Source: Candidatus Saccharimonadota bacterium (GTDB taxonomy: Bacteria > Patescibacteriota > Gracilibacteria > Absconditabacterales > Absconditicoccaceae). Taken from it: a stretch of 32,000 nucleotides of DNA. The first letter of the stretch is position 1. Every line of letters begins with the position of its first letter. Below are positions 1-16,027 of this stretch, one piece after another. The stretch lies in assembly GCA_000503875.1 (NCBI GenBank), contig CP006913.1, forward strand, positions 390,001 through 422,000, read 5' to 3'. Under the pieces are notes generated by a model. The model saw only the letters and a list, made by a program, of their open reading frames with translations. It did no database searches and was not told the origin of the DNA. Both the position numbers and the translations under genes were made by a program.

Positions 1-4
1 AACT

Positions 5-715
5 ATGCCTGTCGAACTTTTCCCTGAACAAGAGGGAAATGGCGTAACAAATATCGATACTTGCAATCCCAAGATTATATATATCAAAATAAACAATATA
101 AAAGTACCTGTGTTGGATATTTTGGAAGTAGCCAAAAGATATATTATCAATTTTATAGATGAGGTTACTCATAAACAATTTACCAACATCAAGCATCCTG
201 ATTATAAACACAAAGATGCTCTTAGACTCAATACGATAATTCAAATCTTATATGTATCACAAAGAGATGCAAGCCCCCGTTGACTACTTTCGTTTATAAA
301 TCAATATATCAAAGAACTAAAAAAGCAGCTTCCATCAGTAAATAGATCTATATTTATCCAAAAAATATTGGTTAATTACCCAAAGGTATACAAAAAACTT
401 TCTTACATTACCAAACTTTATATAAAACTTTCTCGCCAACAACTTGATGGAACTGATGATGTGGATTTTTCTACGTTCCATGCAGAGTTAAAACAAGAAC
501 TTACCAAAATATATGAGATTATTCATCTCTACCAAAATCATATTCTCCATAATTTATATATCAAAAAATCAAATTTTCTCAAGAGAGTACAACAAATAGA
601 ATGTGAAAAAATACAAGAATATATACAAAAAATAAATCTGACAAATAAAATAAATGGTTTTGCTTATTTTTACGAAGTCTATTCTATCATCTATATGATC
701 AAAAATCACGAATAA
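5..715 (+). CDS. hypothetical protein, 236 aa from ATG 5. The frame is open to position 2, so it may start upstream of the window. One in-frame TGA (281-283) is read as Gly.
   Basis: Track ORFs 5..283 and 368..715 share one frame. The 84 nt between them have no TAA/TAG. The real stop is TAA 713-715. No family recognised. Confidence 0.5.
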
Positions 716-779
716 AAATAGATTGACATAAAAATTTAAATATATAAACTTCAAAAGTAACACTAAAAAAATCTAAAAA

Positions 780-971
780 ATGGCAGGAAAAAAAAATTAT
801 TCCGAAAAGGATCTTTTTGAAGAAGAATCCAAAAGAGAATTTCACCTTCCAAAAGAACAAGGACTCCCTCGTGGATTCCAAACTTTCACTCCTAGCGAGT
901 ATTTTGAACGCCAGGAAAAACAGAATGCAGAGGTAGAAAGCAATCTCCCAAAGTATTCTGATCATACTTAA
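780..971 (+). CDS. small hypothetical protein (63 aa, charged, no TGA)
   Basis: ATG-to-TAA ORF followed 13 nt later by a hairpin plus T-run terminator. No recognisable domain. Confidence 0.4.
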   Translation: MAGKKNYSEKDLFEEESKREFHLPKEQGLPRGFQTFTPSEYFERQEKQNAEVESNLPKYSDHT

Positions 972-983
972 GTAAACAAAAAA

Positions 984-1014
984 AATCGTCTAGGCAACTC
1001 CAGACGATTTTTTA
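984..1014 (+). terminator. rho-independent terminator after the 63-aa ORF
   Basis: Stem aatcgtct (984-991) pairs with agacgatt (1002-1009) and is followed by a T-run. Confidence 0.6.
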
Positions 1015-1023
1015 TAAAGCAAA

Positions 1024-1050
1024 AAGCCCCGGAAAAAATCCGGAGCTTTT
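1024..1050 (-). terminator. rho-independent terminator of the T9SS-CTD gene
   Basis: On the minus strand: agctccgg-attttttt-ccggggct followed by ttttt (8-bp stem with one G.U), 16 nt after the TAA at 1066-1068. Confidence 0.6.
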
Positions 1051-1065
1051 CTTTGAGGTTGATAA

Positions 1066-2832
1066 TTATTGTTTCACAATCTTGAAAGTACGAGATTGTG
1101 TTTTGTCCTGTGTTGTTTTTATGATATAAGTTCCAGGACTGAACCCACTCATATCGATACTGTGTTTTTGTTGGCTATACCCCTTATAAAGGAGATTTCC
1201 AATGAGGTTAAATATTTCCACAGTACCATTTTTTTCGAGTTCTATTGTGCAGAGAGAAATTACAGGATTTGGATAGATTGTAATCTTTCCATTTTCTATA
1301 TCTTCTACTCCTGTGACGGTAACTTGTTCGCTATCAGAGTTTTTACAACCATGATTGTCGGTAACCGTAACTGAATAAGTACCAGAAGCACTTACTACAA
1401 TAGTTTGTGTTATTGCAGTCGTAGACCATAGATATTCAGAAAATCCTGTACCTGCATCTAACGTTGCATTTCCATTACCCGAAGTTTGTGTGATATTAAC
1501 CGTAGGTAGAGGATTAACAACAACGACAACTTGATCAGCAATAACACCACAAGAACCGTTAACAGTAGCGGTATAAGTTTTGGTTTCAGAAGGAGTAAAA
1601 GGCACGCCATCTACAACTCCGTTATCCCAACTTAATGTTCCGTTAGTATAAGAAGCGGTTAAGGTAACCTGTCCACCTTGGCAAACAGAAGCATCAGCTC
1701 CAGCATTAACCGTAGGTAGAGGATTAACAACAACGACAACTTGATCAGCAATAACACCACAAGAACCGTTAACAGTAGCGGTATAAGTTTTGGTTTCAGA
1801 AGGAGTAAAAGGCACGCCATCTACAACTCCGTTATCCCAACTTAATGTTCCGTTAGTATAAGAAGCGGTTAAGGTAACCTGTCCACCTTGGCAAACAGAA
1901 GCATCAGCTCCAGCATTAACCGTAGGTAGAGGATTAACAGTAATTACAACTTCATCACTAGCAAAACAATCATCTTTAGCAACACTAACTGAATAAGTAT
2001 CAGCAGAACCTATCTCGATAGTCTGAGTAGTTTGTCCATCAGGCCCCCAAAGATAAGTAGCTCCAATAACTCCAGCATCGAGTATTGTAGTAGAACCTTG
2101 GCAAATTGCTCTATCAGCACCAAGATTAACATTAAAAATTGTCTCTGTAATTACTACAGTACCATTCATCGTAATACTTCCACCAGCATTAGTAGCAACA
2201 CAGGTATAGCTTCCAGCAGAAATCCCAGTCCACTCAAGAGTGGAACCAGTAATACCAGTTTTTGCGCTACCTACATTAGCATTGCTAGCATCTTTTAACT
2301 GATAACTTGCACCAGTCTCAGAATTAGAAAGTAATATAGATTTTCCACCAGTGCCTTGACAATAAGCACCTGAACCAGTAAGATTATAAACAGTAGGTTT
2401 AGGTGGATTTTCCCATAATACAATAAAATTAAGTTCATTATAAGGAGGGACTACAAAATCTCCAACATGGACAGTTTGAAAATACTCTCCTTTGCTATTT
2501 TTTTGATTAATAGCTACTACATTAGTTTTTTGTATAGTTACCTGAAAAGTAAAAAGAGCAATATATTCTCCTTCAAAATCCCATCGATAACTACTAGGGC
2601 ATGATTGATTTGGTGGGCAGAAATCAGTATTGCCTACCTGGAAAATTCCATGGTTAAGTAAATAGTTCATTTTAACAGTATCGCATAATGCAAGATCAGT
2701 AGTTATGTAAAGATCATACGCTTTAGTTACCGTTGACTCGCTATTTACATAGATTGTTTGTTTTTGGGCATTACTATACTTCGTACCCAATATCACAATT
2801 AGCAAAATTAAAAAAAGTTTGAGTGCTTTCAT
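1066..2832 (-). CDS. secreted repeat-rich surface protein with a Bacteroidetes-type T9SS (Por) C-terminal sorting domain
   Basis: Uninterrupted 588-aa ORF (ATG at 2830-2832, TAA at 1066-1068). Signal peptide MKALKLFLILLIVILGTKYSNAQ. Two identical 70-aa Ig-like repeats (VNPLPTVNAGADASVCQGGQVTL...). The C-terminus KITIYPNPVISLCTIELEKNGTVEIFNLIGNLLYKG...PGTYIIKT...FKIVKQ matches the TIGR04183-type sorting-domain pattern as I remember it. By my count there are 56 Gly codons and none is TGA. Confidence 0.85.
   Translation of the reverse strand: MKALKLFLILLIVILGTKYSNAQKQTIYVNSESTVTKAYDLYITTDLALCDTVKMNYLLNHGIFQVGNTDFCPPNQSCPSSYRWDFEGEYIALFTFQVTIQKTNVVAINQKNSKGEYFQTVHVGDFVVPPYNELNFIVLWENPPKPTVYNLTGSGAYCQGTGGKSILLSNSETGASYQLKDASNANVGSAKTGITGSTLEWTGISAGSYTCVATNAGGSITMNGTVVITETIFNVNLGADRAICQGSTTILDAGVIGATYLWGPDGQTTQTIEIGSADTYSVSVAKDDCFASDEVVITVNPLPTVNAGADASVCQGGQVTLTASYTNGTLSWDNGVVDGVPFTPSETKTYTATVNGSCGVIADQVVVVVNPLPTVNAGADASVCQGGQVTLTASYTNGTLSWDNGVVDGVPFTPSETKTYTATVNGSCGVIADQVVVVVNPLPTVNITQTSGNGNATLDAGTGFSEYLWSTTAITQTIVVSASGTYSVTVTDNHGCKNSDSEQVTVTGVEDIENGKITIYPNPVISLCTIELEKNGTVEIFNLIGNLLYKGYSQQKHSIDMSGFSPGTYIIKTTQDKTQSRTFKIVKQ
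1501..1920. repeat. perfect 2 x 210-bp tandem duplication inside the T9SS-CTD gene. The repeat edge recurs at 1921-1940.
   Basis: 1501-1710 and 1711-1920 read identically by eye (cgtaggtagaggattaacaacaacgacaacttgatcagc...). Each encodes one 70-aa repeat. Confidence 0.9.
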
Positions 2833-3021
2833 ATTTTTATATTATTTTTTTGTTTTTAACTGAAAAAAATGTTAATTACCAACCTCAAAACAGATTCTAA
2901 TTATTTACCATAAAATGTCAATCTAAATATATAAGAAAGTATAGATTTCCTTGGTCAAAATCATACATCAGATTATAATTGTTTTATTGAATTTCCTTTT
3001 ACCTTGTATTATGCATGTATT

Positions 3022-5733
3022 ATGAACAACAAAACAAAATTTCTTAAATTTGGTATTGCAGTACTCTTGGGAGCAGGAGTTGTAGGTGGATTACTCTATG
3101 CCCAACTCAATATCCCTACAGATATTGATAATGCAGTAATGACTATTAAACAAATCAATATTACGTCGGATGGTCAAGCAACTACGCCCAAAATTGTTAT
3201 TGATGGTAGTGCATCAGATGGTAATTTTCTTAAAGTTGAATGAAGTATATTGATGGGAAGTATTACAGGATCTATTGGTCAAATAAATAAAGTATCAGGA
3301 GATAAATCAAGTATTCTTTGAGGAGTGAAAAATACGATAAATGGAGATTATTCGATAATTCCATGATGATCATATAATCAAGTGACAGGAACAGATTCTT
3401 ATGCTTTTGGAAATACAGTAAGAGTTAATGGTAGTCAATCATATGCAATTTGAAAATCTTTAATTTTGAATTGAAATGGTTCTTTTGTCTTTTCAGATGG
3501 AAAGCCATCAAATTTTACCGTTTCTAAAGATTGAGTTTTTATTGTAAAAGTTACTAACGGAGTAGGTATCAATACATGAGTAACAACTACAGGTTATGAC
3601 TTAACCGTTGCAGGTAGTGGTATCGTTTACGGTAACCTCAAAACAAACAATATGATAGCTGGAGCGTATTATTATGGATCAATAACTAGTGAAGATGATC
3701 AATACGAACTCAAATTAAGCCAATGGGAAGGAATAGGAAATATTTATTATAATTCATGATATGTAGGAATTGGAACCAATAATCCTACAGCACAACTCCA
3801 TGTAAATGGAACAACAATATTACAAGGGTTATCAACATCAACACAAACTACAGCTTTGGTTGTAGACGCCAATGGAAATGTAGGTACAAGAGCATTAAAC
3901 ACAGTAGCATTTAACGGATATACAGCGCCAGTAACATCAGTATCAGGAAGAACTGGAGCAGTAGTATTAACAAAAACAGATGTAGGATTGGCAAGCGTAG
4001 ACAATACAGCAGATATGGCTAAACCAGTTTCAACAGCGACACAAACAGCATTGAATCTCAAAGCAAATTTAGCAAATCCAGCCTTGACAGGGATACCAAC
4101 AGCACCAACAGCATCGACATGAACAAGTACAACTCAAATAGCAACAACAGAATTTGTAAAATTACAATGATATTTGACTACTGCTACAGCACCAGTAACA
4201 TCAGTAGCAGGAAAAGCTGGAGTAGTACTATTAACAAAGGCAGATGTAGGATTGGCAAATGTAGACAATACAGCAGATATGGCTAAACCAGTTTCAACAG
4301 CGACACAAACAGCATTGAATCTAAAAGCAAATCTAGCAAGTCCAGATTTGACAGGAATACCAACAGCACCAACAGCATCAATAGCAACAAACACAAATCA
4401 ACTAGCAACAACAAAATTTGTAAAAGATCAATGATATTTGACTATTGCTACAGAAGCAGATCCACAAGTGGGAACATTGACAAGTGGAAGATGGTGTACA
4501 ACAGATGGAACAACAGTAAATTGTGCAACAGTAGCACCAGTAACTACAGAAAGTGATCCACAAGTAGGAACACTAACTTCTGGTAAAATGTGTACAACAA
4601 ATGGAACAACGGTAAATTGTACGACAGATATTCCAGTAACTCCGACAAATTATGTAACAACAGATACAAATCAACCAGTAGCATGAATTAAAACATTTAG
4701 CAATAATACTATTTTCAACGGAAATGTAGGAATTTGAACAACAAGTCCTCAAAGTAAACTTCATATATTTGCACCATCACCAGTTCTTACATTAGAAGGA
4801 ACTGTTGATGATACCACAAAAATCAATTTTATTGATGATTGATCAGTTGTATGAGAACTTTCTGTTGATCGTAGTAGTGGTTTAACAAAACTTTGGACAA
4901 CAGAGCCTCTTTCTTTTTGATCAGCTAATGCGGAAAAAATGCGTATTTTACAAAATGGAAATGTAGGAATTTGAACAGCAAGTCCAGCAACAAAACTTCA
5001 TGTATATTGAGTAGATGGTTCATTCCCAGCTCGTATATCAAGTCCAGCTGGTTATATAGATATTGGACCATCAAATGCTTCGTGGGCACACATTTATACT
5101 GATAGACCAAATTTTATTTTTAATGCATGAGTCTACATTATAGGAGGAAAATTAAGTACATATGATACAGCTAGTCTACAATTACAAACAAATGGAACAA
5201 CAAGAATCTTCGCTGATAATACCAATGGTAATGTAGGAATTTGAACAACAACACCAGCAGCAAAACTTCATGTGGCATGATCAATTTGAGCTACTTCTTG
5301 GATTGGTGCGTGATGTGAGTGAGCTTGTGAATCATGAGGAGGATATTCTCTTTTGTACGCAGATGGAACAATTGTAGCAACAAGTTCAGTAACAGCAGCA
5401 GCATTCTACTATTCATCAGACATCACTCTCAAAAAAGATCTTACAAAAATTACAAATCCATTGGAAAAAATCATAGCATTAAATGGATATAATTTTACAT
5501 GGAAATCAAATGATAAAAAAGATATTTGAGTGGTTGCACAAGAAGTAGAAAAAGTATTTCCAGAAGCTGTTAAAGCAGATGCCAAAGGATTAAAATCAGT
5601 TGAATATGGAAACTTAGTTGCTCCAATTATCGAAGCAATCAAAGAATTATATACCAAATACCTAGATCAACAAACACAAATTTCCGAGCTAGAACAAAGA
5701 ATTGAAATATTAGAAAAGAATATAATTAAATAA
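3022..5733 (+). CDS. tail-fibre-like surface fibre protein (903 aa) with an N-terminal membrane anchor or signal and a C-terminal intramolecular-chaperone (peptidase S74-like) domain
   Basis: Single frame from ATG 3022 (alternative TTG 3004) to TAA 5731-5733, with dozens of in-frame TGA and no TAA/TAG; checked codon by codon. N-terminus MNNKTKFLKFGIAVLLGAGVVGGLLYA. Repeated NVGIGT(T/A)SP..KLH(V/I) motifs. Two 88-aa repeats contain GxxGAVVLTKxDVGLxxVDNTADMAKPVSTATQTALNLKA...TGIPTAPTA...TNQ(I/L)ATTxFV, a classic phage tail-fibre repeat. Confidence 0.85.
3922..4449. repeat. 2 x 264-bp tandem repeat encoding the tail-fibre repeat module
   Basis: 3922-4185 versus 4186-4449 are near-identical over long stretches (gatgtaggattggcaa..gtagacaatacagcagatatggctaaaccagtttcaacagcgacacaaacagcattgaatct). 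Confidence 0.85.
5413..5730 (+). other. peptidase S74-like intramolecular chaperone / autocleavage domain of the fibre protein
   Basis: SSDITLKKDLTKITNPLEKIIALNGYNFTWKSNDKKDIGVVAQEVEKVFPEAVKADAKGLKSVEYGNLVAPIIEAIKEL followed by a coiled-coil tail. This matches the S-D-x-x-x-K ... G(F/V)xAQEVxxVxPExV ... YxxLxxxxIxAIKEL pattern of endosialidase/tail-fibre chaperone domains. The predicted cleavage Ser-Asp is at 5416-5421. Confidence 0.8.
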
Positions 5734-5814
5734 TAATTCAAAATCTGAATTAAATAATTTTCCAAAAATTATGAATATTGTTTATTATACAATCTTTACT
5801 AATTATAAATAATA

Positions 5815-8800
5815 ATGGGAAAGCTCAAAAAAACATGAATTATACTTGCTATATTTTGTATATCACAGATAATTTTTTCCGGTTTTGCTTTTGTATCTCC
5901 GATGTTAGTTATCAATAATACAGGGAATAATGCAAAAATACTTCCTATGAGAAAATGATGTCAACAGATAATCAATAATTGTGCTTATCCGATAGGAATA
6001 CTTATGTATCCTTCTTCAGCAACAAAATCATTTTTTGAAAACAAACCATCATGTGTAGTGTTGAGTGAGTGTGTAAAGACTATAAAATGTCCTGGTACAC
6101 TTCCTACAAATACAGAATGGAATACAAGTAGTAATTATGTACAAACATTTGATGGATTTAAATGGGTACCAACAAAAACTGCACATTATGATGCTACACC
6201 AGCATCAGATGATTGTAGATATGATTGTAAAACCAATTATTCATGGAACGGAACTAGTTGTATAGCGGATACAAGAACATATACATGTGCTGCAAAACCA
6301 ATAGGAACAGTGCGAAATACAGTAGGTAATTATTTACAAACATGGAATGGTACAACTCGAACACCATTAGATAGTACAACAAGTTATAGTACAACAGTAA
6401 GTACAAATTCTTGTAAATATAAATGTGATGTTTGATATAGATGGGATACTACAACTTCAAGTTGTATAAATACCTGTGCATTGCCATGGTGATGATGAAC
6501 AAAAACACATTGAGAAACAATAACAGCATATGATAAAACAAGTGGAACATGTACAACAAATAATTGTGCATCCGAAACACGTACATGTAATGGAGCGCTC
6601 TGAACATTTGATTGAACATATCAATATGCAAGTTGTACTCAAAACGCAAACACCCAAAGCTGTGTAATAGCAAACGGAGTAGGAACTCAATCATGTACAG
6701 CATGATCAACAAGTCGATGAACTTGTAATGTAGTAAGTTGTAACGCAGGATACCGTGCATCATGAAATACATGTGTAAATACATGCGCATTACCATGGTG
6801 AGGAACAATTACAAATGGACAATCAGTAACAGCATATGATAAAACGAGTGGAACATGTACAACAAATAATTGTGCATCAGAAACACGTACATGCAATGGA
6901 ACACTTTGAACATTAAATGGAACATATCAATATGCAAGTTGTACTCCAAACGCAAACACCCAAAGCTGTATAATAGCAAACGGAGTAGGAACTCAATCAT
7001 GTACAGCATGATCAACAAGTCGATGAACTTGTACTTTAGTAAGTTGTAACGCAGGATATCGTCCATTATGAAATACATGTATAAATACCTGTACATTACC
7101 ATGGTGATGAACAATTACAGATGGGCAACCAGTAACAGCATACGATAAAACAAGCGGAACATGTCCAACAAATAATTGTGCATCACAAATTCGTGTTTGT
7201 AACGGAACACTTTGAACATTAAATGGAACATATACGTATCAAAATTGTACAGCAAATGCAAATACGCAAAGCTGTACTGTTTCTAATGGTTGAGGAAATC
7301 AATCATGTGCAATATGATCAACAAGTCGATGATCATGTATAGTAAACCGATGTACTACAGATTATTATGATGATGGTTGAGCTAATGATTGTGTACATGT
7401 AGGAAATTGATATTATTCTAATAGTACATCAACAACAAGAACAGCATGTACAAATTATCCAGATACAGCAAGTCGTAATTATACATATACAAGTGCAGGA
7501 AATGGAACGAATAGTTGTACAGCAACATATACAGAATTATGTTGATTGGATTTATACGAGAATCCAATTGGAGTGTGTAGTGCAGTAGGAAACTGATATT
7601 TTTCACCAATAAACAATAATAGTAGAACATTATGTACAAATTATCCAGATACAGCAAGTCGTGATTATACATATACGAGTGATGGAAATGGAGCAAATAG
7701 TTGTACAGCAACATATACAGAACTATGTTGATTAGATTTATATGAAACATCAAATTGAGTGTGTAGTGCAGTAGGAAACTGATATTTTTCACCAATAAAT
7801 AATAATAGTAGAACATTATGTACAAACTATCCAGATACAGCAAGCCGTGATTATACATATACGAGTGATGGAAATGGAGCAAATAGTTGTACAGCAACAT
7901 ATACAGAACTATGTTGAGTAGATTTATATGAAACATCAAATTGAGTGTGTAGTGCAGTAGGAAACTGATATTTTTCACCAGCGAATAATAATAACAGAAC
8001 ATCATGTACAAATAAACCATCATACTCAACATATACAACTGATGGAAATGGAACAAATACTTGTTCACGAACTTGTGATACATGATATCACACAGAAGAT
8101 GGTGTTACTTGTATTTCAAATACGAAAACAACAAGTTGTACTGGGAAACCATTAGGAACGACATATTATACTGCAACAGATATAACACAAACATGGAATA
8201 CTAGCTTAAGTGCATGGCTTCCAAGTGCTGTAGCAACATACAGTACAACAGCAAGTACAACAGAATGTAGATACACCTGTGCAGCTTGATATCTTCGAAA
8301 TGGATCTTCATGTGTAGCGTGATGTAAAACTAATAGTGATTGTAGTTTATGAAAAATATGCCAATGATATGTAGCCCCTACTCGAAAATGTTTAGGAACT
8401 CAATTAAATAATTGATCTTGTAGTCAAGAGCCACTCCCATGATTTTGTGATAGTGAAGATTCTCCTTGTAGTACATATGATACATATTATGATTGTCAGG
8501 ATACGGATCGTTGTCATCTAGGAAAGCCTGGTATATGTAACCGAAATTGAACCTCTTGTATATGAATTACTAGTCAAACTACATGTAGTGCGACAGCATG
8601 ATGTTCAGTAAGTAATACATCATCAGAAGTATTTTGAACCTGTGTAACACCTACTCCTGTCTGTGGAAATGATATTGTAGAGATAGGGGAAACATGTGAT
8701 TGAGGAAGTCAATCATGTAGTATTGGAGGTGTAGCAGGAACTCAATTATGTAATAATACATGTAGTTGATATGGTACTTGTTTAGTAAGTCCATGTATAG

Positions 8801-9933
8801 CAAGTTATAATACAGATGTATGTTGATGATGTAAATGAAGTTGGACTATGTCAAGTTGTGATAATCGTGAATGTACTCCTGATGGTCTTGAAGATGCAAT
8901 ATGGAATTGTTCTTATGCTTGAATAACAAAACAATGTTATTCAGTATTAGGAGATCCATGTAATACATCAACATGTTTTACCTCTGGTACTCAAGTAAAA
9001 ACAGCAGATGGAATAAGTAAAAATATTGAAAATATTCAAATAGGAGACGAATTATTAGGTCAAGACGATCAAATAAATACTGTTATTGCATATGACCGTC
9101 CAAATCTTGGAGAAAGAAAACTTTATAGCATAAATAATGGACCATATTTTGTGACTCATGAACATCCATTTATGACTATATGATGATGGAAATCTATAAG
9201 TCCAGAAGCAACTCGAAGAGAAATGCCTAACTTTGAAATATTACCACTCAAAGTGGGAGATATTCTTATAAAAGAAAATAATGAAATTGAGTACATATGG
9301 AGTATCCAATCAACGACAGCAGATCCAGAAATACCATTATACAACTTTAAATTAGACGGAAATAATACTTATTATGCAAACGGATATTTAGTACACAATA
9401 AATTATATGATTGAGATGGTTGTACATTAAGTTCTCAATGTGCATGTGGATCTTGTGTTGGTTGAGTATGTTGTCCTACAGGAGGAGGCTGATGTTTCAA
9501 AGAATGAACACAAGTACGTTTACCAGATGGAACAACAACAGCTATAGAAAATATTCAAACAGGAAATATTGTATTATGATCAGAAAATACTCAAAACACA
9601 GTTCTCAAATTATTTAAAATCTGGAATAATAATTGGGATCTTTATGCAATAAATAATTCTGATTATTTTGTTACTGATACACATCCATTTATGACAACAG
9701 AAGGATGGAAATCATTGAATCCAGTATGATCTAGCAAAGAAAATCCAGGTATGATATTCTGACAACTTGAAATTGGTGATATACTTATAACAGAACAAGG
9801 AACAACTATTATATACTCATTAGAAAAAACAGCATATGCATGATATGTATATAATTTTAGATTAGATGGAAATAAAACATATTACGCAGATTGATATCTA
9901 GTACATAATGTAGAGATAAAATCTGTTGAATAA
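5815..9933 (+). CDS. giant secreted cysteine-rich repeat protein (1372 aa) ending in two tandem Hint (bacterial intein-like) domains
   Basis: One frame from ATG 5815 to TAA 9931-9933 with TGA = Gly; I walked the whole frame and found no TAA/TAG. N-terminal hydrophobic segment GIILAIFCISQIIFSGFAFV. Three ~102-aa repeats (CxLPWGG.I..G..V.AYDKTSGTC.TNNCAS..R.CNG.LG...). Four 62-aa repeats (VGNGYFSP.NNN.RT.CTNYPDTASR.YTYTS.GNG.NSCTATYTELCG.DLYE). One CGNDIVEIGETCD motif resembles the myxococcal Cys-rich repeat. Two Hint domains follow. Confidence 0.85.
6475..7395. repeat. 3 x ~306-309-bp coding tandem repeat (Cys-rich CxLPWGG module)
   Basis: Unit starts at 6475, 6784 and 7090 (tgtgcattgccatggtga / tgcgcattaccatggtga / tgtacattaccatggtga), with long near-identical stretches. 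Confidence 0.85.
7399..8142. repeat. 4 x 186-bp coding tandem repeat (VGNGYF...CTNYPDTASR module)
   Basis: Unit starts gtaggaaa(t/c)tgatat at 7399, 7585, 7771 and 7957. Copies 2 and 3 are almost identical. Confidence 0.85.
8974..9399 (+). other. Hint domain 1 (bacterial intein-like, 142 aa)
   Basis: Starts CFTSGTQVKTADG (block A Cys1), contains VTHEHPFMT (block B TxxH) and ends YYANGYLVHN (block G HN). The next residue is Lys, not Cys/Ser/Thr. Confidence 0.8.
9493..9909 (+). other. Hint domain 2 (139 aa), 31 aa downstream of Hint 1 in the same protein
   Basis: CFKEGTQVRLPDG ... VTDTHPFMT ... YYADGYLVHN, followed by only VEIKSVE and the stop. Confidence 0.8.
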
Positions 9934-9961
9934 TAATTGTATTTAATTTAATTATTTTTTC

Positions 9962-11167
9962 ATGAAACAGAAAATGACTTTCAAAAATCTAGAAAAAAAT
10001 ATATTTGTTGTTGGGATATTGTTTTTTTGAATAATAGGTGTCATTTTTGCTATAAATACTCAGAATGAATGATGGAGAATTACTAAAAGTGGTAGCTCAG
10101 CAACAGTTAATGTCCATAATGAATGTCGCGTTGTTACAAATAACCGTACAGATAATGATATTTTTGTACCAACAAGTTCAAGCGCAGAATGGCTATCTTT
10201 TAGAAATAATTTACCAACTAATGTTATTTTAGCTGAATGTGCAACTTGTTGATCTGCAAATTGATGAAGTTTTTCTCATCTTTTACCAACTGCTTCAACA
10301 CTTTGTCCCTCAGGAGTGACAGCAACTAATTTTCAATATCACGAGGGAATGATGGCAAAAGCCACTATATTTGGTGCAGTATATGCTGATTATATTGATG
10401 GTTATCGAGATTGGAATTGTGGTATATCTTATTGTTTTGCAAGTCATACGGTTGCCGGAGATCCTCCGACAAGTTATACATGTTCAGAGTCAGATTCAGC
10501 TTGTAGTTTATATTTTTCTGATACATGTTATAATACAAATACCATATGAGCAACCATCTGTGGTGTCGGAAATCATAAGGCAACATGTACCAGTGCATGA
10601 TGGGATGATGGGGGATGGTGTAGTGCGACATGTTTTGTAGAAAACACTCCTGTATTAATAATGGATGGATCTCATAAAAATATACAAGATGTTATTATTG
10701 GTGATATATTATTAGGTAAAGATAACACACCAAATAAGGTTATTGATTATTATCGTCCTATATTATGAGCAAGAAAATTGTACAGTATAAATAATGGTTT
10801 ATATTTTGTAACTCCAGAGCATCCATTTATGACGCTATGATGATGGAAATCTATAAATCCAGAAGCAACTCAAAGAGAAATGCCTAATTTCGAAATACTA
10901 CCCCTTAAAGTAGGTGATATATTGGTTAAAGAAAATGGAGAATCAGAATATATACGAACAATGTCATCAATATCAGTAGATCCAGAAACTCAATTATATA
11001 ATTTTAAATTAGATGGAAATAATACTTATTATGCAAATGGATACTTAGTACATAATAAATCACAGTGTCTCACTAATTCCGATTGTTCATCTGTTGGAGT
11101 TGGTTCTTGTTGTAATAACGGAACTTGTACAATACTTGTCAATTGAGTACGACCGACATGTAATTAA
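9962..11167 (+). CDS. secreted cysteine-rich protein (401 aa) with a Hint domain and a 36-aa Cys-rich C-terminal tail
   Basis: ATG 9962 to TAA 11165-11167, one frame with TGA = Gly. N-terminal TM/signal NIFVVGILFFGIIGVIFAI. Motif DIFVPTSSSAEWLSFRNNLP. Hint domain. Tail KSQCLTNSDCSSVGVGSCCNNGTCTILVNGVRPTCN. Confidence 0.85.
10631..11056 (+). other. Hint domain 3 (142 aa)
   Basis: CFVENTPVLIMDG ... VTPEHPFMT ... YYANGYLVHN. About 80% identical to Hint 1 at DNA level by eye (for example EMPNFEILPLKVGDIL is shared). Confidence 0.8.
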
Positions 11168-11575
11168 ATAAGTATCAATAAGAAAAGTGATTTTATATTT
11201 TATAAAACCATGAAGAAAAGTATACTGATTATAATTATATTGGTAGTTTTTTCATGAGTTGGTTTATTATTAGCAGCAAACCAATGATATTTTTGATATT
11301 GAGTGTCAAATACATTATCGGTAGCAAAATTAAATCAATCAGCAGGTTCAGCTGGAGCCGTATCTACATCAGTTTCCAAAGTAGAAGAGCATGGTATATG
11401 TAAAACAATAACTTCTACCAACACTAAACTTCTTTTTGTTCCTACAAAAACTGCAACAGAACGATCAACTTTTATAACAAAAAAACCAAATCATATAATA
11501 CTTGGTTCATGTGGATGTACAACGAATTCTGATTGTAGTGTTTGAAGTATATGTTCATGATATGTTGCTGGGGCA
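11166..11575. repeat. copy A of a ~410-bp duplicated module (upstream region plus first ~120 codons)
   Basis: aaataagtatcaataagaaaag... through ...tgttcatgatatgttgctgg matches 12150-12560 with scattered substitutions. Confidence 0.8.
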
Positions 11576-12052
11576 TGATATTGTGATGGAGAATTTGTAT
11601 ACAATAGTCCTGCATATTGTCAGAACGATTGTCGTGATGGACCTACTTGTGATCCTTGTACTGGAGTGACAAATCAGTGGGATTGCGAATCACAAACTCA
11701 GTGAGATCCTTGATATGAGTTTCAAGCTTGTTCTCGAATACCTGAGCAACCATGATGAACAGCTTATTGTGGTCAAGAATTTAGAACCCAAAGTGAATGT
11801 AATACTGCTCCTTCTGAATGTACTTGGGTAAATTGAACAGCAACACCATGAACGTGTGTTGCTCCAGTTGCTGTTTGTTGAAATGGTATAATTGAAGGTA
11901 CAGAACAGTGTGATGAACCAGCAAATATGTGAGATATGACTTCTTGTTCACGGACAGAAAATCTTCAACAGAAATGTAGCTCATGTCATTGTCAAACAAC
12001 CTGTCAGTCATATATAGATCCTAATGCTTGAAGAGTAGTTTGTTCAATGTAG
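11210..12052 (+). CDS. secreted cysteine-rich protein (280 aa), a Hint-less member of the family
   Basis: ATG 11210 to TAG 12050-12052 with 16 in-frame TGA (hand count). Signal/TM SILIIIILVVFSGVGLLLAA. Conserved ICKTITSTNTKLLFVPTKTATERSTF, CGCTTNSDCSVGSICSGYVAG and CGNGIIEGTEQCD motifs. Confidence 0.8.
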
Positions 12053-12106
12053 TCTATATTAGAATAGTAAATAATGATATTTGAAAAGATATATTTTATA
12101 AAGAAA

Positions 12107-12134
12107 GGCCTCTATGAAAATAGAGGTTTTTTTC
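12107..12134 (+). terminator. rho-independent terminator
   Basis: cctcta (12109-12114) pairs with tagagg (12121-12126), followed by a run of 7 T. Confidence 0.7.
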
Positions 12135-12149
12135 TTGATTGTAAAATTG

Positions 12150-12560
12150 AAATAAGTATCAATAAAAAAGGTAATTTTATATGTAATTAAATTATGAAAA
12201 AAAACTTATTAGCCATAATACTATTGATAATTTTTTCATGAGTCGGTTTATTGCTAGCAGCAAATCAATGATATTTTTGATATTGAGTATCAAGTACATT
12301 ATCGATAGCAAAATTAAATCAATCAGCAGGTTCAGCCGCAGCAATATCTACTACAATCCCAAAAATAGAAGAGCATGGTATATGTAAAACAATAACTTCT
12401 ACTGACACTAAACTTCTTTTTGTTCCTACAAAAACGGCAACAGAACGATCAACTTTTATCACAAACAAGCCAAGTCATATAACGCTTGGTACCTGTGGAT
12501 GTACAACAAATGCTGATTGTACTGTAGGACAAATTTGTTCATGATATGTTGCTGGAGCAA
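12150..12560. repeat. copy B of the ~410-bp duplicated module
   Basis: See copy A. The junction motif tttttttcttgattg(t/c)aaaa also recurs after both terminators (12127-12148 and 13821-13842). Confidence 0.8.
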
Positions 12561-13777
12561 ATTCTTGTCAAGGATCTTATGAATCAACATCTTTTTGGTG
12601 TGTATGAAAATCAATTCCTGATAGTTCTCCTCCATACGTTTGTATGAAGTCAGGTGAACCTTATCAATTAGTTCCAGCAGATTGATGTCCATCAGGTCGA
12701 AGTTTATGATTTATTCAATGATGATCTATTCTGTCTGTATCAGAAACTCTATGTCAGATTATAGACCAAACTGATTTTCAATTACCTAATTGTGAGTATA
12801 AATGTAATACATATACAACATCATCTACTTGTAATGCTAATTCATCATATTGTGATTGGGTATCAAGAAATAACTCATTATCTTGTTCTTCATTTAACCA
12901 AACAACATGTCAATCAACAAATGGTTGTGATTGGGTACCTTGAACACCAGTAACATTAGGAACTTGTACAACTCAAATATGTGGTAATGATATTAAAGAA
13001 TGAACAGAATTGTGTGATGGTTATGATCTTCAAATACCGTGTACTACGACTTTATGAAAAGTTTGAACAAAATACTGTAATAGTACCTGTAATTGATATA
13101 CTACTTGTGTAGCAGATCCAACACCACCATCATGATCAACTTGTGTCCCTAAAAATTGTTTTATAGCTGATACAAAAATTAAACTAGCTGACGGTAGCAC
13201 AAAGCCAATTCAAGAAATAACAACAAAAGATATCGTATATAGTGTATCATGAAAAAAGAATAAAGTAATATGAACATCAAAAAGATTGGATACGACACCA
13301 CTTTATGCATTTAACAATAGTAATCATTATTTTGTAACAGAGGCACATCCGTTTCTTACATTAGATGGATGGAAATCACTAAATCCAGACGCAACAAATC
13401 AAGAAAATCCATGATTGATGGTAACTAAATTATCTATATGAGATATATTAATCACAGAAAAATGAACTACCACATTATTTGCTATCGATTCTATCCCAAA
13501 CAAACAAGGAACATATGTATACAATATTACTGTAGAAAACACCCATGATTATTATGCTGATTGATATGCTGTTCATAATAAATTACAATGTTTAGATATT
13601 GGCTTATATCCATGTGATGGTTGAATGTATTGTGCTGATAATGCATCTCAATGTGAACAATGTCCTGTTGGACTATGTGATCCATGTACTAGTACTTCTC
13701 AATGTCCTGTAGATAGTTATTGTCATTCTATAAATAAAATGTGTCGACCGAGTAGCTGACCAGTTTGTGCATTATAA
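12194..13777 (+). CDS. secreted cysteine-rich protein (527 aa) with a Hint domain and a 65-aa Cys-rich C-terminal tail
   Basis: ATG 12194 to TAA 13775-13777, one frame with TGA = Gly. The first ~120 aa are near-identical to the 11210 gene. Contains a CGNDIKEGTELCD motif, a Hint domain and the tail KLQCLDIGLYPCDGGMYCADNASQCEQCPVGLCDPCTSTSQCPVDSYCHSINKMCRPSSGPVCAL. Confidence 0.85.
13157..13579 (+). other. Hint domain 4 (141 aa)
   Basis: CFIADTKIKLADG ... VTEAHPFLT ... YYADGYAVHN, followed by Lys. Confidence 0.8.
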
Positions 13778-13797
13778 TAAAATATAAAATTTTAAAG

Positions 13798-13828
13798 AAA
13801 AAAACCTAGCAATTATTAGGTTTTTTTC
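13798..13828 (+). terminator. rho-independent terminator
   Basis: aaaaccta (13801-13808) pairs with taggtttt (13817-13824), running into a T-run. Confidence 0.65.
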
Positions 13829-13888
13829 TTGATTGCAAAACAGGAATAACTATCCTAAATACAATTTTTATTTTTTCGTTAAAAGTAT

Positions 13889-14947
13889 ATGTTCAAAAAA
13901 TTAATTCTGATTTTAAATATATGAATATTGTTTTTTTCTTTTGGTTTTGCTTACAAAGAACTCATTATCCAAAATATCGATAAAAAACCAGTGAGAGTTA
14001 TTAAAGTAATTTTGGATGGGCAACATTATGTAGTAAGTTCTGTAGCAGAGGATGGGGGAGCAACGCTTCAAGAACTTACCAAAAAAGTTGGTGGGGATAC
14101 TGCCGTCAATGGAACGTTCTTTTGTCCCGATGATTATAGTTCTTGTGGAGGGACGACTCATACAAATTCAGAAAGAATTTATCTATGAGATGGGGCGTCT
14201 TGGAGCAGACATCGACCTGATACAAGTATCAGAATGGTGTTCTGATTTGATAAAGATTGAAATTCTGCATTTGTTCAAAATAATATGGGAAAATTGATCG
14301 ATGCCTGATTATGGATCAAACCAGATCAAAAGAAATTAGAATCATTACAATTTTGAATAGGATGATTTCCTGCTTTTCTTCTTGAAGGTGAGGATGTCGT
14401 AGAGTGATATAATGCATATCTTGATACCAAAATGAATACTGCAGGCAATAAAACATTTATTTGTTCAACAGAAGATTGATCTACAATTTATATGTGAGTT
14501 GTATGATGAATAAACATTCCCCAGATGCCGGCATATCTCAAAAAAAACTTTGATTGTCGAAATGCACTCAATCTTGATGCAGGAAATAGTATAGGTATGA
14601 TATATTCCGGGTTTGTTCTTGATCAGAGTAATAGAACGAGAATTATGGATGCTTTTGTTGTATTAACGAGAGAACAATATATCAATCTTACAAGAATAAC
14701 TCCATCAAATAAAACACCTTATGATGCAGAAGAACAATATCAACTTACCGAAAAAGATCAGCAAAAGGTCAAAACTATTTACAATGCATTACAGCCGTTT
14801 ATTATACAAAATGGAACAAAACAAAAACGAAGCTTTATTTCATTGCTTCGTTCAGCAGTTACTGCTCCAAAAATCGTTGCAGATCCACAAAAATTAGCAA
14901 TTATCAAAGATTTGCTCTGGAGATTCTTTGTCATTTGAGAGTTATAA
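13889..14947 (+). CDS. probable phosphodiester glycosidase family (DUF2233/NAGPA-like) exported protein, 352 aa
   Basis: ATG 13889 to TAA 14945-14947, one frame with about 13 TGA (walked by hand). N-terminal hydrophobic segment. Motifs AVNGTFF and ALNLDAGNS resemble the NGGFF ... NLDGGGS signature of that family. The assignment is from memory. Confidence 0.5.
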
Positions 14948-14949
14948 AA

Positions 14950-14973
14950 AAAGCCCACTTGGGGCTTTTTTCT
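14950..14973. terminator. bidirectional terminator between the DUF2233-like gene and nusA
   Basis: aaaaaa-agccc-acttg-gggct-tttttt, with an A-run and T-run on either side. Confidence 0.65.
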
Positions 14974-14989
14974 TATTATTTGATTATTA

Positions 14990-16027
14990 CTATCTAATTT
15001 CAATTGCATATCCTGTAAGTTGACCGGCTAATTTTACATTTGATGCTCACTTTCCAATAGCTAATGGTTTTTGAGATTCATCCATAGTAACAATAGCTTT
15101 CTTATCTTTGATTTCTATAGTATCTACATGTGCTGGTTTGAGACAATTTTTGATCATCTGTTTACTATCTCCATTGTTTTCTACAAAATCGATTTTTTCA
15201 CCATCAAGAAGTGATAAGACGGTATTGATTCTATCTCCCTTACTTCCTACCATTACTCCTACTGGATCGATTTTCTCATCAGTTGATGATACGACAATTT
15301 TGGTTTTCAAACCAGGAATTCTTGCCATTTTTTCTATTTTAATAATTCATTCTTCAAGTTCTGGTACTATTTTTCTTAGGATTGCTTCGATATATTCAGT
15401 ACTTGTCTGAGTAATTTCCAATACGATTCCACCTTGTCCTTTAGAAATTTGCTTCAAAAGTACGAAAATTTCTTCACCTGGTTCATATGATCTATTTGGA
15501 ATTTGTCCTTCAGCACCAAGAACCACAGCTGTTCCTTCAATATCTAAGATTACGCTATCAGCATGTACTCTGATAACTCTTGCTTTGAGAAGTTCTCATT
15601 GTTTGTTTTGGAATTTTTCGTAGAATCTTTCTCTTTCGATATTTTTGAGGTTTTGCTTGATTGTTTGAGCAGCAGCTTGTGAAGCAATTCTAGAAAGTTC
15701 AAGTCTTTCAGGAGTTACATTGATCAAAATAGCTTCTCCTACTTCCACATCTTTTCTAATTTTTTTAGCTTCTTTAAGGATAATTTGCAATTCTGGATCT
15801 TCTATTTCGCTTTCCTTATTTACTACGATCAATTCTTTGTATATAGTTACTGTTCCATCATTTTCGATATTTACAATAATTTGTGATTTTTTAAATTCAG
15901 GAAAATCTTTTTTGAAACCAGATTTAATTCCTAATTTTACGATTTCTAATACGCTATACGGATCGAATTTATAATCATCTACAAGTTGCATAATAGCTGC
16001 TTGGATACTTTTACCATCTAATCTCAT
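14990..16027 (-). CDS. nusA: transcription termination/antitermination factor NusA (345 aa)
   Basis: ATG at 16025-16027, TAG at 14990-14992, three in-frame TGA. S1 and KH regions align to E. coli NusA from memory (KIDPVGVMVGSKGDRINTV; AIGK-G-ASNVKLAGQLTGY, where TGA 15047-15049 sits on the conserved Gly of GxxG). Confidence 0.9.

Follow-up and report, generated by a model that had tools for sequence, protein, structure and literature searches.

Adhesins of the SprB type and GhpA (PDB 9flw, 9flp and 9fly), the grappling-hook protein that the predatory Bacteroidota Aureispira secretes through the type IX secretion system (T9SS), consist of a signal peptide, a chain of Ig_7/PKD domains and a terminal sorting domain of the TIGR04183 family. 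A protein of the same design, with a putative signal peptide, is encoded in the stretch of DNA analysed here, 32,000 nucleotides (nt) of contig CP006913.1 (positions 390,001 to 422,000; referred to as the window), which belongs to an uncultured bacterium that reads the codon UGA (TGA in the DNA) as glycine. The gene occupies a position that recurs in related genomes, the slot, and is called the slot gene in what follows. Its product differs from Bacteroidota T9SS cargo in being small (588 amino acids), in being encoded by a member of the SR1 lineage with genetic code 25, and in having an N-terminal domain that is almost unique to SR1. Not one glycine of this protein is encoded by TGA, and the same holds for the genes found in the slot of related species.

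Three further known systems are useful for comparison. In Vampirococcus lugosii, one of the Absconditabacteria, 126 genes have been inferred to originate from horizontal gene transfer (HGT; PMC8080830). The slot gene is similar to these in having foreign, in this case surface-related, ancestry within a predatory or epibiotic lineage belonging to the candidate phyla radiation (CPR), and is unlike recent HGT because its acquisition appears to be old and it was inherited together with its flanks. Variable lipoprotein loci of Mycoplasma and flagellin or pilin alleles combine conserved expression signals with replaceable bodies. The likeness of the slot to such hypervariable surface loci, which is drawn from general knowledge, lies in the retention of promoter, signal peptide, C-terminal module and terminator around a middle part that is unrelated or fast-evolving, and in the internal tandem repeats and raised ratio of nonsynonymous to synonymous substitution rates (dN/dS, 0.36–0.58) observed there; in contrast to them, the neighbourhood of the slot showed no recombinase and neither silent cassettes nor invertible elements, and the variation is seen between species. 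Recoded phages, finally, keep their early genes without the recoded stop codon so that the host machinery can read them. Here too a subset of the genes of a recoded genome stays compatible with the standard code while others use the recoded codon heavily, but the carrier is a cellular bacterium and the TGA-free subset is a secreted family with Bacteroidota export signals. The finding thus combines codon avoidance with old HGT and with a variable surface locus. No literature linking T9SS with SR1, Gracilibacteria or Absconditabacteria was found and, as far as these searches reached, a code-25 gene family that is kept free of the reassigned codon and maintains a T9SS signal is apparently undescribed.

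Absence of in-frame TGA from the slot genes

The host is evidently a member of the Absconditabacteria (SR1), outside the Bacteroidota/FCB group. The window carries the cellular genes nusA, gltX, gyrB, rpoD, ruvA, lepA and rsuA, and the product of infB, which lies just left of the window, matches Absconditabacteria/SR1 metagenome-assembled genomes (MAGs) at 55–85% identity (best local segment). By all indications from the sequence this genome uses code 25, in which UGA specifies glycine: the long open reading frames (ORFs) of the window emerge only when TGA is read as a sense codon, and when the TGA positions of GyrB are compared with the GyrB of E. coli, six of ten align with glycine and none with tryptophan. 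Against this background the slot gene stands out. As the original prediction had counted, its 56 glycine codons (24 GGA, 24 GGT, 4 GGC and 4 GGG) include no TGA, and it does end in TAA, whereas TGA makes up 229 of the 711 glycine codons (32%) of the other 21 genes of the window. This share varies among native genes. It is 18% in the pooled housekeeping genes (39/213; per-gene range 10–33%) and 38% in the other native genes pooled (p = 1.2e-7), and the lowest value for a native gene with at least 20 glycine codons is 10%. If TGA were used at the pooled rate, the probability of its absence from 56 glycine codons would be 3.5e-10; with the lowest native rate it would be 2.7e-3.

The same absence is found in the slot genes of other SR1 contigs, among them L004, L014, L096 and L098; the SR1 DNA available for comparison amounts to about 230 kb in total, which limits the generality of the results on the slot. 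L096 was assigned to SR1 because 22 of 23 nt match a repeat element that is scattered in L004 and does not occur in the 77 metagenome loci retrieved with the slot protein. In the pooled slot genes TGA accounts for 0 of 183 glycine codons (95% upper bound 1.6%), with a joint probability of about 2e-30 at locus-specific rates, and the genes neighbouring the slots use TGA for 20–50% of their glycines. The substitutions tell the same story: L014 and L096, which differ by 0.51 synonymous substitutions per synonymous site (dS), share 28 positions at which both proteins have glycine, of which 11 have changed codon, none to or from TGA. When all comparisons are taken together, none of the 16 synonymous glycine changes of slot genes involves TGA, whereas 105 of 150 do so in native orthologs (Fisher 2.7e-8). 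Out of frame, TGA is common in all slot genes (6 and 21 occurrences in the two other frames of the window gene). Since glycine codons drift among GGN only while out-of-frame TGA is common, in-frame TGA is evidently removed by selection that acts on decoding and not on the DNA. Exclusion of in-frame TGA from the slot genes by selection, beyond mere absence, is thus well indicated by these sequence comparisons. Among native genes, about 70% of the synonymous glycine changes between sister species involve TGA, so that TGA turnover is fast.

A second TGA-free slot was observed in more distant SR1 genomes, at positions 8017-8640 of L007 (0 of 23 glycine codons; P = 3e-6), 8052-8609 of L013 (0 of 18) and 2874-3455 of L006 (0 of 10). 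It holds a fast-evolving lipoprotein gene (31% amino acid identity and dN/dS 0.58 between L013 and L006) with a conserved extended -10 promoter, and lies upstream of an ABC ATPase gene and infB. In L009, whose genome has 59% TGA among its glycine codons, two ORFs (7589-8116 and 9961-10311) have TGA in 0 of 12 and 1 of 6 glycine codons; their GC content at third codon positions (GC3), 0.37 and 0.52, is much higher, and they may represent foreign genes of truly recent arrival.

An ortholog in the same slot and the age of the gene

The N-terminal domain of the slot protein gives access to the history of the gene. An exhaustive HMMER search with amino acids 23-150 against 1.84 billion representatives returned five proteins: the query itself, the 135-amino-acid protein P0125, a 4444-amino-acid SprB-repeat protein with a Por_Secre_tail that shows distant similarity, and two weak matches. 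The only close relative, P0125, is an SR1 ortholog encoded on L098. This contig begins with an S74 gene, the homolog of the divergently oriented neighbour of the slot gene in the window, in which TGA makes up 16 of 34 glycine codons, followed by the same divergent promoters as in the window. A group II intron (RF02003, 78.4 bits) cuts the ORF of P0125 short at 135 codons; the intron spans positions 1386-2085 (700 nt, GTGCA...AAT), follows codon 131 and apparently has no ORF of its own. When it is excised in silico the frame is restored exactly and the ORF stays open to the end of the contig. Window and L098 are homologous at the DNA level without a break from the S74 gene over the promoter and on into the ORF, and the homology resumes past the intron.

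Over the 177 codons that can be compared, the two slot genes have 48% amino acid identity and a dS of 1.33, while the adjacent S74 genes have 60% identity and a dS of 0.97 over 240 codons. The five changed glycine positions of the slot genes are all GGN to GGN, and of the 16 changed ones in the S74 genes 10 involve TGA. The L098 ortholog has no TGA among its 16 glycine codons, and its codon usage is otherwise native-like (0.45 T at third positions, GC3 0.16). An ortholog in the same slot with a dS of about 1.3, similar to that of the flank, indicates that the gene was there before the species split. The gene thus appears to be a long-term resident of SR1 and its acquisition to be old, which runs counter to the original prediction that it was recently acquired. 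That prediction had also named native homologues with TGA-encoded glycines as the sign of vertical inheritance; the homologues are native yet TGA-free, a third outcome that it had not foreseen.

Genomic context of the slot

The slot is bordered on one side by the S74 gene, which marks it in the window, L004, L014 and L098 and which in the window uses TGA for 27 of its 98 glycine codons. The coordinates of the slot, its flanks and the parts of the encoded protein are collected in the table.

Table. Features of the slot and of the slot gene. Contigs other than the window are from sister species.
Feature	Contig	Position	Strand	Remarks
Slot gene, secreted protein with type-A T9SS sorting domain	window	1066..2832	-	588 aa, 56 Gly codons, no in-frame TGA, TAA stop
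Putative signal peptide, aa 1-22 (MKALKLFLILLIVILGTKYSNA/Q)	window	2767..2832	-	by inspection and modelled helix 4-13
N-terminal domain, aa 23-145	window	2398..2766	-	rare; no Pfam match; pLDDT about 30
Ig-like beta-sandwich chain (Ig_7/PKD-like), aa 146-510	window	1303..2397	-	domain matches, homologs, AlphaFold model
Tandem repeat, period 210 nt, 2.2 copies, 98% matches	window	1495..1957	-	two identical 70-aa Ig units
C-terminal T9SS sorting domain of type A, aa 519-588	window	1069..1278	-	YPNP, PGTY and KIVK motifs; seven predicted strands
Promoter-like site, TTGACA-16-TAGAAT, 11/12 match	window	2894..2921	-	about 60 nt upstream of ATG
Divergent intergenic region	window	2863..2990	.	78% identity to L004; continuous with S74 homology in L098
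Cassette: ORF, about 30 nt of 5' untranslated region (UTR) and 12 nt past the stop	window	1054..2862	-	no DNA homology to L004
Terminator hairpin right after stop codon	window	1011..1053	-	91% identical to that of L004; also in L002
Tail-fibre-like surface protein, C-terminal Peptidase_S74 chaperone domain	window	3022..5733	+	divergent flanking gene
Other flank: hyp378 C-terminal part (5-715), hyp63 (780-971)	window	5..971	+	infB next, outside window
L004 slot gene	L004	5627-7756		709 aa; TGA 0/42 Gly, local rate 49%
L014 slot gene	L014	7576-8664		362 aa; TGA 0/33 Gly, local rate 23%; TIGR04183 37.3 bits

Between the window and L004 the flanks are clearly homologous at the DNA level (90% identity at the start of the S74 gene, 78% in the divergent promoters, 91% in the terminator and 73% in hyp63 and hyp378), whereas the two slot ORFs gave no blastn match. 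Divergence in situ was considered as an account of this difference and rejected, the flanks being 78–91% identical and the ORFs unmatched. The promoter-like site is kept in L004 and L098, and L014 has a similar one. L004, L014 and L096 have a short 3' UTR element after the stop codon, and the same element forms the first bases of contig L002; the integron-like cassette system that this common element brought to mind was dropped, as there is no integrase nearby. At the protein level, the Ig region of the window protein shares at most 24% identity with the slot proteins of sister species. These comparisons portray the slot as a cassette-like, fast-evolving locus, of which the body varies by species while promoter and terminator or 3' UTR are common.

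Sorting domains appear to be a recurrent part of the slot: three SR1 species besides that of the window have a TGA-free gene with such a domain there, and wherever the slot of a related species was readable, a near-consensus promoter precedes a gene for a secreted protein with a terminal domain of the Bacteroidota T9SS type. A custom profile of C-terminal domains (CTDs), for which 106 sorting domains from standard-code loci were used, was run against the six-frame ORFs of at least 70 amino acids in the SR1 DNA and matched TGA-free ORFs only. In L004 the domain is weaker (E = 1.4e-7 with the custom profile, sub-threshold in Pfam).

Assemblies of different origin agree on the locus. The top protein match in the database search, P0001, is the slot protein minus one 70-amino-acid repeat and is encoded on the 462-kb contig DPJE01000003.1, which is identical to positions 1-3100 of the window apart from one 210-nt repeat unit. 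A MEGAHIT contig from ENA, assembled from a sediment metagenome (SRR944699/PRJNA167727), shows 100% identity as far as the repeat, at which it breaks. The exact 210-nt duplication of the window is thus a single unit in DPJE01000003.1 and the break point of the ENA contig. No identical database entry was found for the 588-amino-acid protein of the window, the DPJE01 copy being one repeat unit shorter. Because these three assemblies come from different pipelines and from one population, they alone exclude only an assembler-specific artefact; a chimera is more strongly excluded by the analogous or orthologous genes in the same slot of other SR1 species. The slot context of L014 is likewise the same in three assemblies. 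The slot gene is, on these grounds, evidently a genuine chromosomal gene of SR1.

Accessory genes and small repeats were observed near the slots of sister species. A RelE-like toxin-antitoxin pair adjoins the slot in L004 (7815-8337), and RhuM-family and DUF559 genes (6326-7351 and 8785-9234) lie beside that of L014. Small GC-rich palindromic repeats, such as GTCATTTCCGC...GCGGAAATC and GATTCCCGC...GCGGGAATGAC, are scattered between genes of these AT-rich SR1 genomes, some of them just upstream of slot genes (L004 5317-5414, 12942-13045, 13355-13416 and 15222-15269; L096 1-23; L098 923-972).

Protein architecture, ancestry and codon usage

The T9SS sorting domain that the original prediction had recognised is indeed present: residues 519-588 score 47.1 bits with TIGR04183 (cut-off 23) and 40.1 bits with PF18962 (cut-off 27), and the TIGR04183 match reaches residue 588 of 588, the extreme C-terminus. 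The AlphaFold model has low confidence in the N-terminal part (amino acids 13-148; predicted local distance difference test, pLDDT, about 30), high confidence in the Ig-like beta sandwiches (231-510; pLDDT above 90), which have conserved cysteines, and a sorting domain of seven strands between residues 517 and 587 (pLDDT about 85). The best Foldseek matches of this model are fragments of Aureispira GhpA (E = 1e-21 to 1e-18). On inspection, the N-terminus has the shape of a signal peptide, with MK, a hydrophobic core and SNA/Q, and homologous signal peptides are present in L098, L014, L096 and the protein P0123. The Bacteroidetes style that had been ascribed to the ..AQ ending proved not distinctive, and the ending was dropped as a sign of foreign origin: the TGA-rich, native S74 protein next door ends its signal peptide in YA/Q. 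The sorting domain has a dN/dS of 0.20, compared with 0.39 in the passenger region, and appears from these rates to be under purifying selection. None of the 22 genes of the 32-kb window, to which this search was confined, encodes a T9SS component. An aquifer SR1 genome has been reported to contain no genes for lipid A or lipopolysaccharide (LPS) and to contain a sortase, type IV pili, ComEC and DprA; given this reported absence of lipid A and LPS genes, SR1 is not expected to have its own T9SS.

Proteins related to the slot protein are found mainly in Bacteroidota. A search of 5.8 billion clustered proteins gave 446 significant matches; among the best 120, which are those listed, P0001 is the sole SR1 protein, and the matches with a named source are nearly all Bacteroidota proteins of T9SS or gliding type, with 27–48% identity over the Ig_7/PKD repeats. 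For the Ig region the identity to Bacteroidota proteins is about 35–51%, and the closest non-SR1 matches (43–51%) cover Ig repeats only. A scan of the JGI metagenomes found 77 loci, all distant (best 53%), of which those longer than 5 kb are all standard-code; for six JGI loci ORF coverage had suggested code 25, but on testing they proved to use the standard code. The slot protein gave no viral match in IMG/VR. A close donor was thus found neither among the 5.8 billion clustered proteins nor in the JGI metagenomes or IMG/VR. Of the proposed transfer from Bacteroidetes, the Bacteroidota-like architecture, the homologs and the atypical codons are borne out, and the recency and a close donor are not.

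Base composition contributes little to the question of origin. The higher GC content noted in the original prediction is real in so far as the slot gene, with 37.2%, is near the top of the range of the other window genes (26.6–37.5%; at most 36.1% in all genes of more than 100 codons), but its GC3 of 0.197 is within the native range (0.106–0.35) and carries no foreign signal. The excess GC lies at codon positions 1 and 2 and is accounted for by amino acid composition and by GGN where TGA is absent, and GC content was therefore rejected as evidence of foreignness. The style of Shine-Dalgarno sequence or 5' UTR was uninformative as a marker of origin, since native genes also lack Shine-Dalgarno motifs. 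The choice of synonymous codons departs more from that of the native genes. Four-fold degenerate codons of the slot gene end in T in 73% of cases, compared with 42% in native genes, and 7 of its 13 cysteine codons are TGC, compared with 10 TGC and 209 TGT elsewhere in the window. When synonymous choice, with glycine excluded, was compared with that of 46 standard-code Bacteroidota-like loci and that of the own genome, the number of loci that fitted better than the own genome was 26 of 46 for the window gene, 40 of 46 for the L004 gene and 13 of 46 for the L014 gene, and 0 of 46 for each of four native control genes. The slot family is thus, as far as homology and codon choice can tell, Bacteroidota-like in ancestry, with a codon stamp that has faded at least in L098.

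Other features of the window

Further surface-protein genes lie beside the slot. The S74 gene (3022-5733) contains internal tandem repeats of 264 nt and 96 nt, and repeat copy number differs between two assemblies. Positions 5815-13777 hold four tandem genes for cysteine-rich secreted proteins with the highest TGA use of the window (31–55% of glycine codons, 61 TGA in one gene); three of the proteins have Hint (intein-like) modules, and the one of 1372 amino acids has two. Adjoining nusA, the gene at 13889-14947 codes for a secreted protein that contains a NAGPA (phosphodiester glycosidase) domain and is conserved in L014, with 70% amino acid identity. The genes nusA and infB are usually adjacent in bacteria. 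Here they are on the same strand about 17 kb apart, with surface-protein genes between them (window 1-16027, L001 13064-15496); L014 has a shorter gap of about 10 kb between them, from which the Hint cluster is missing.

Weighing the explanations

The explanation that we favour, and to which we assign a probability of roughly one half, is that the slot genes form an old Bacteroidota-like surface-protein family in a conserved SR1 slot, which encodes a strongly expressed and fast-evolving adhesin and has been purged of UGA because of its decoding cost. The protein would be exported by Sec and form a rod of Ig-like domains, as in the SprB and GhpA adhesins, to act as a hypervariable, strongly expressed adhesin towards a partner or prey cell, whereas its sorting domain would not be usable by a T9SS of SR1 itself. 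Decoding of the reassigned UGA would be costly, and as this cost would scale with expression, the codon would be purged from a very highly expressed slot gene; the slot genes would then be the extreme end of the TGA gradient between housekeeping and other genes. Trigger factor fits this gradient in that its TGA is depleted 1.5- to 3-fold relative to its own locus; the slot genes would require a log-odds depletion of at least 3.4, about 2–4 times that of trigger factor. Several points weigh against this explanation. High expression is a prediction, the near-consensus match of the promoter is no proof of its strength, and the expression idea leaves unexplained the intact T9SS sorting domain in a lineage without outer membrane. 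Trigger factor, an abundant protein, keeps 24–40% TGA in TGA-rich genomes. The slot genes also have saturated synonymous sites and use the rare codons GGC and GGG more than native genes do, which is atypical of strong codon selection, and the synonymous codons of the window, L004 and L014 slot genes are nearer to Bacteroidota-like loci. In addition, the L098 ortholog is a partial copy of 177 codons, and the SR1 context of L096 rests on its 22/23-nt match.

Among the alternatives, an assembly chimera, in which contaminating Bacteroidota DNA was joined into the SR1 contig at about positions 720-3000, had been put forward in the original prediction and is scarcely credible. The gene does look foreign, and a perfect 210-nt repeat breaks or collapses short-read assemblies, but both junctions are the same in the three assemblies, the 462-kb contig included, the flanks, with promoter and terminator, have orthologous counterparts in other SR1 species (L004, L002 and L098), and MAGs or contigs from other samples carry analogous or orthologous genes there between TGA-rich flanks. 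Repeated recent HGT, a recurrent form of the transfer proposed in the original prediction, is a more serious, though still unlikely, candidate. The slot would then be a hot spot in which standard-code Bacteroidota cassettes replace one another and are too young to have gained TGA, which would agree with the lack of TGA and the non-native codon choice, with a pattern of glycine substitutions like that under the standard code, with an Ig region that resembles Bacteroidota proteins (35–51%) more than it does the sister species' slot proteins (at most 24%), with the ORFs of window and L004 that lack DNA homology between homologous flanks, and with the DNA-uptake genes that SR1 carries. However, the same-slot ortholog of L098, with its dS of about 1.3, predates the species split, the searches of clustered proteins, JGI metagenomes and IMG/VR yielded no close donor, and the only close relative of the N-terminal domain among 1.84 billion representatives is the SR1 ortholog. 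The L014 family has four members, and the contexts that are known or inferred (L014 and L096) are SR1. Moreover, replacement would have been exact to the ORF between a common promoter and terminator in several species, which is rare by independent illegitimate insertion.

It is also conceivable, but distinctly improbable, that the message or gene of the slot is passed to a standard-code Bacteroidota host and must therefore be readable where UGA is a stop codon. Host ribosomes, Sec and T9SS would make, export and display an adhesin encoded by SR1; in a milder version, release factor 2 of the host would enter the predator during feeding. This is the sole explanation that covers together the exclusion of TGA, the TAA or TAG stops, the Sec signal, the constrained sorting domain and the codon fit: in-frame exclusion of TGA is absolute through dS values above 1, the sorting domain is intact and under purifying selection in a lineage reported to lack LPS, and synonymous codons are nearer to Bacteroidota-like loci in three cassettes. 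The second TGA-free hypervariable slot (L006, L007 and L013) encodes lipoproteins, co-occurrence of Absconditabacteria and Bacteroidetes has been reported in the literature, and conjugation-type type IV secretion systems have been reported to be widespread in CPR. Against it, there is no precedent for an epibiont that hands mRNA or an expressible gene to a bacterial host, and the known hosts of Absconditabacteria are Gammaproteobacteria. SR1 species have the promoter in common, and its sigma-70-like form is not the type used in Bacteroidota. In L098, furthermore, codon usage is native-like, and any transfer would require prior splicing of the group II intron. There are pathogens that insert a receptor of their own into the membrane of the host. 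By analogy, the slot genes, which standard-code ribosomes with release factor 2 could read for lack of UGA, could be built for decoding and export by a Bacteroidota host, so that an SR1-encoded adhesin or receptor is displayed on the host surface, a proposal of low probability that we advance as speculation; the TGA-free lipoprotein slot near infB of other SR1 species may be a second such cargo.

Concluding remarks

A gene family that is kept TGA-free through speciation means that code 25 would not be neutral across the genome: either decoding UGA as glycine carries a cost that removes it from some genes, or certain genes have to remain decodable by the standard code. That a T9SS signal is maintained although the lineage has no outer membrane suggests that these uncultured predators have Bacteroidota as their source and perhaps as their partner, which is a concrete and testable prediction of their host. 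In-frame TGA per gene, moreover, is a cheap genome-wide marker that could flag genes for host interaction in Gracilibacteria and Absconditabacteria.

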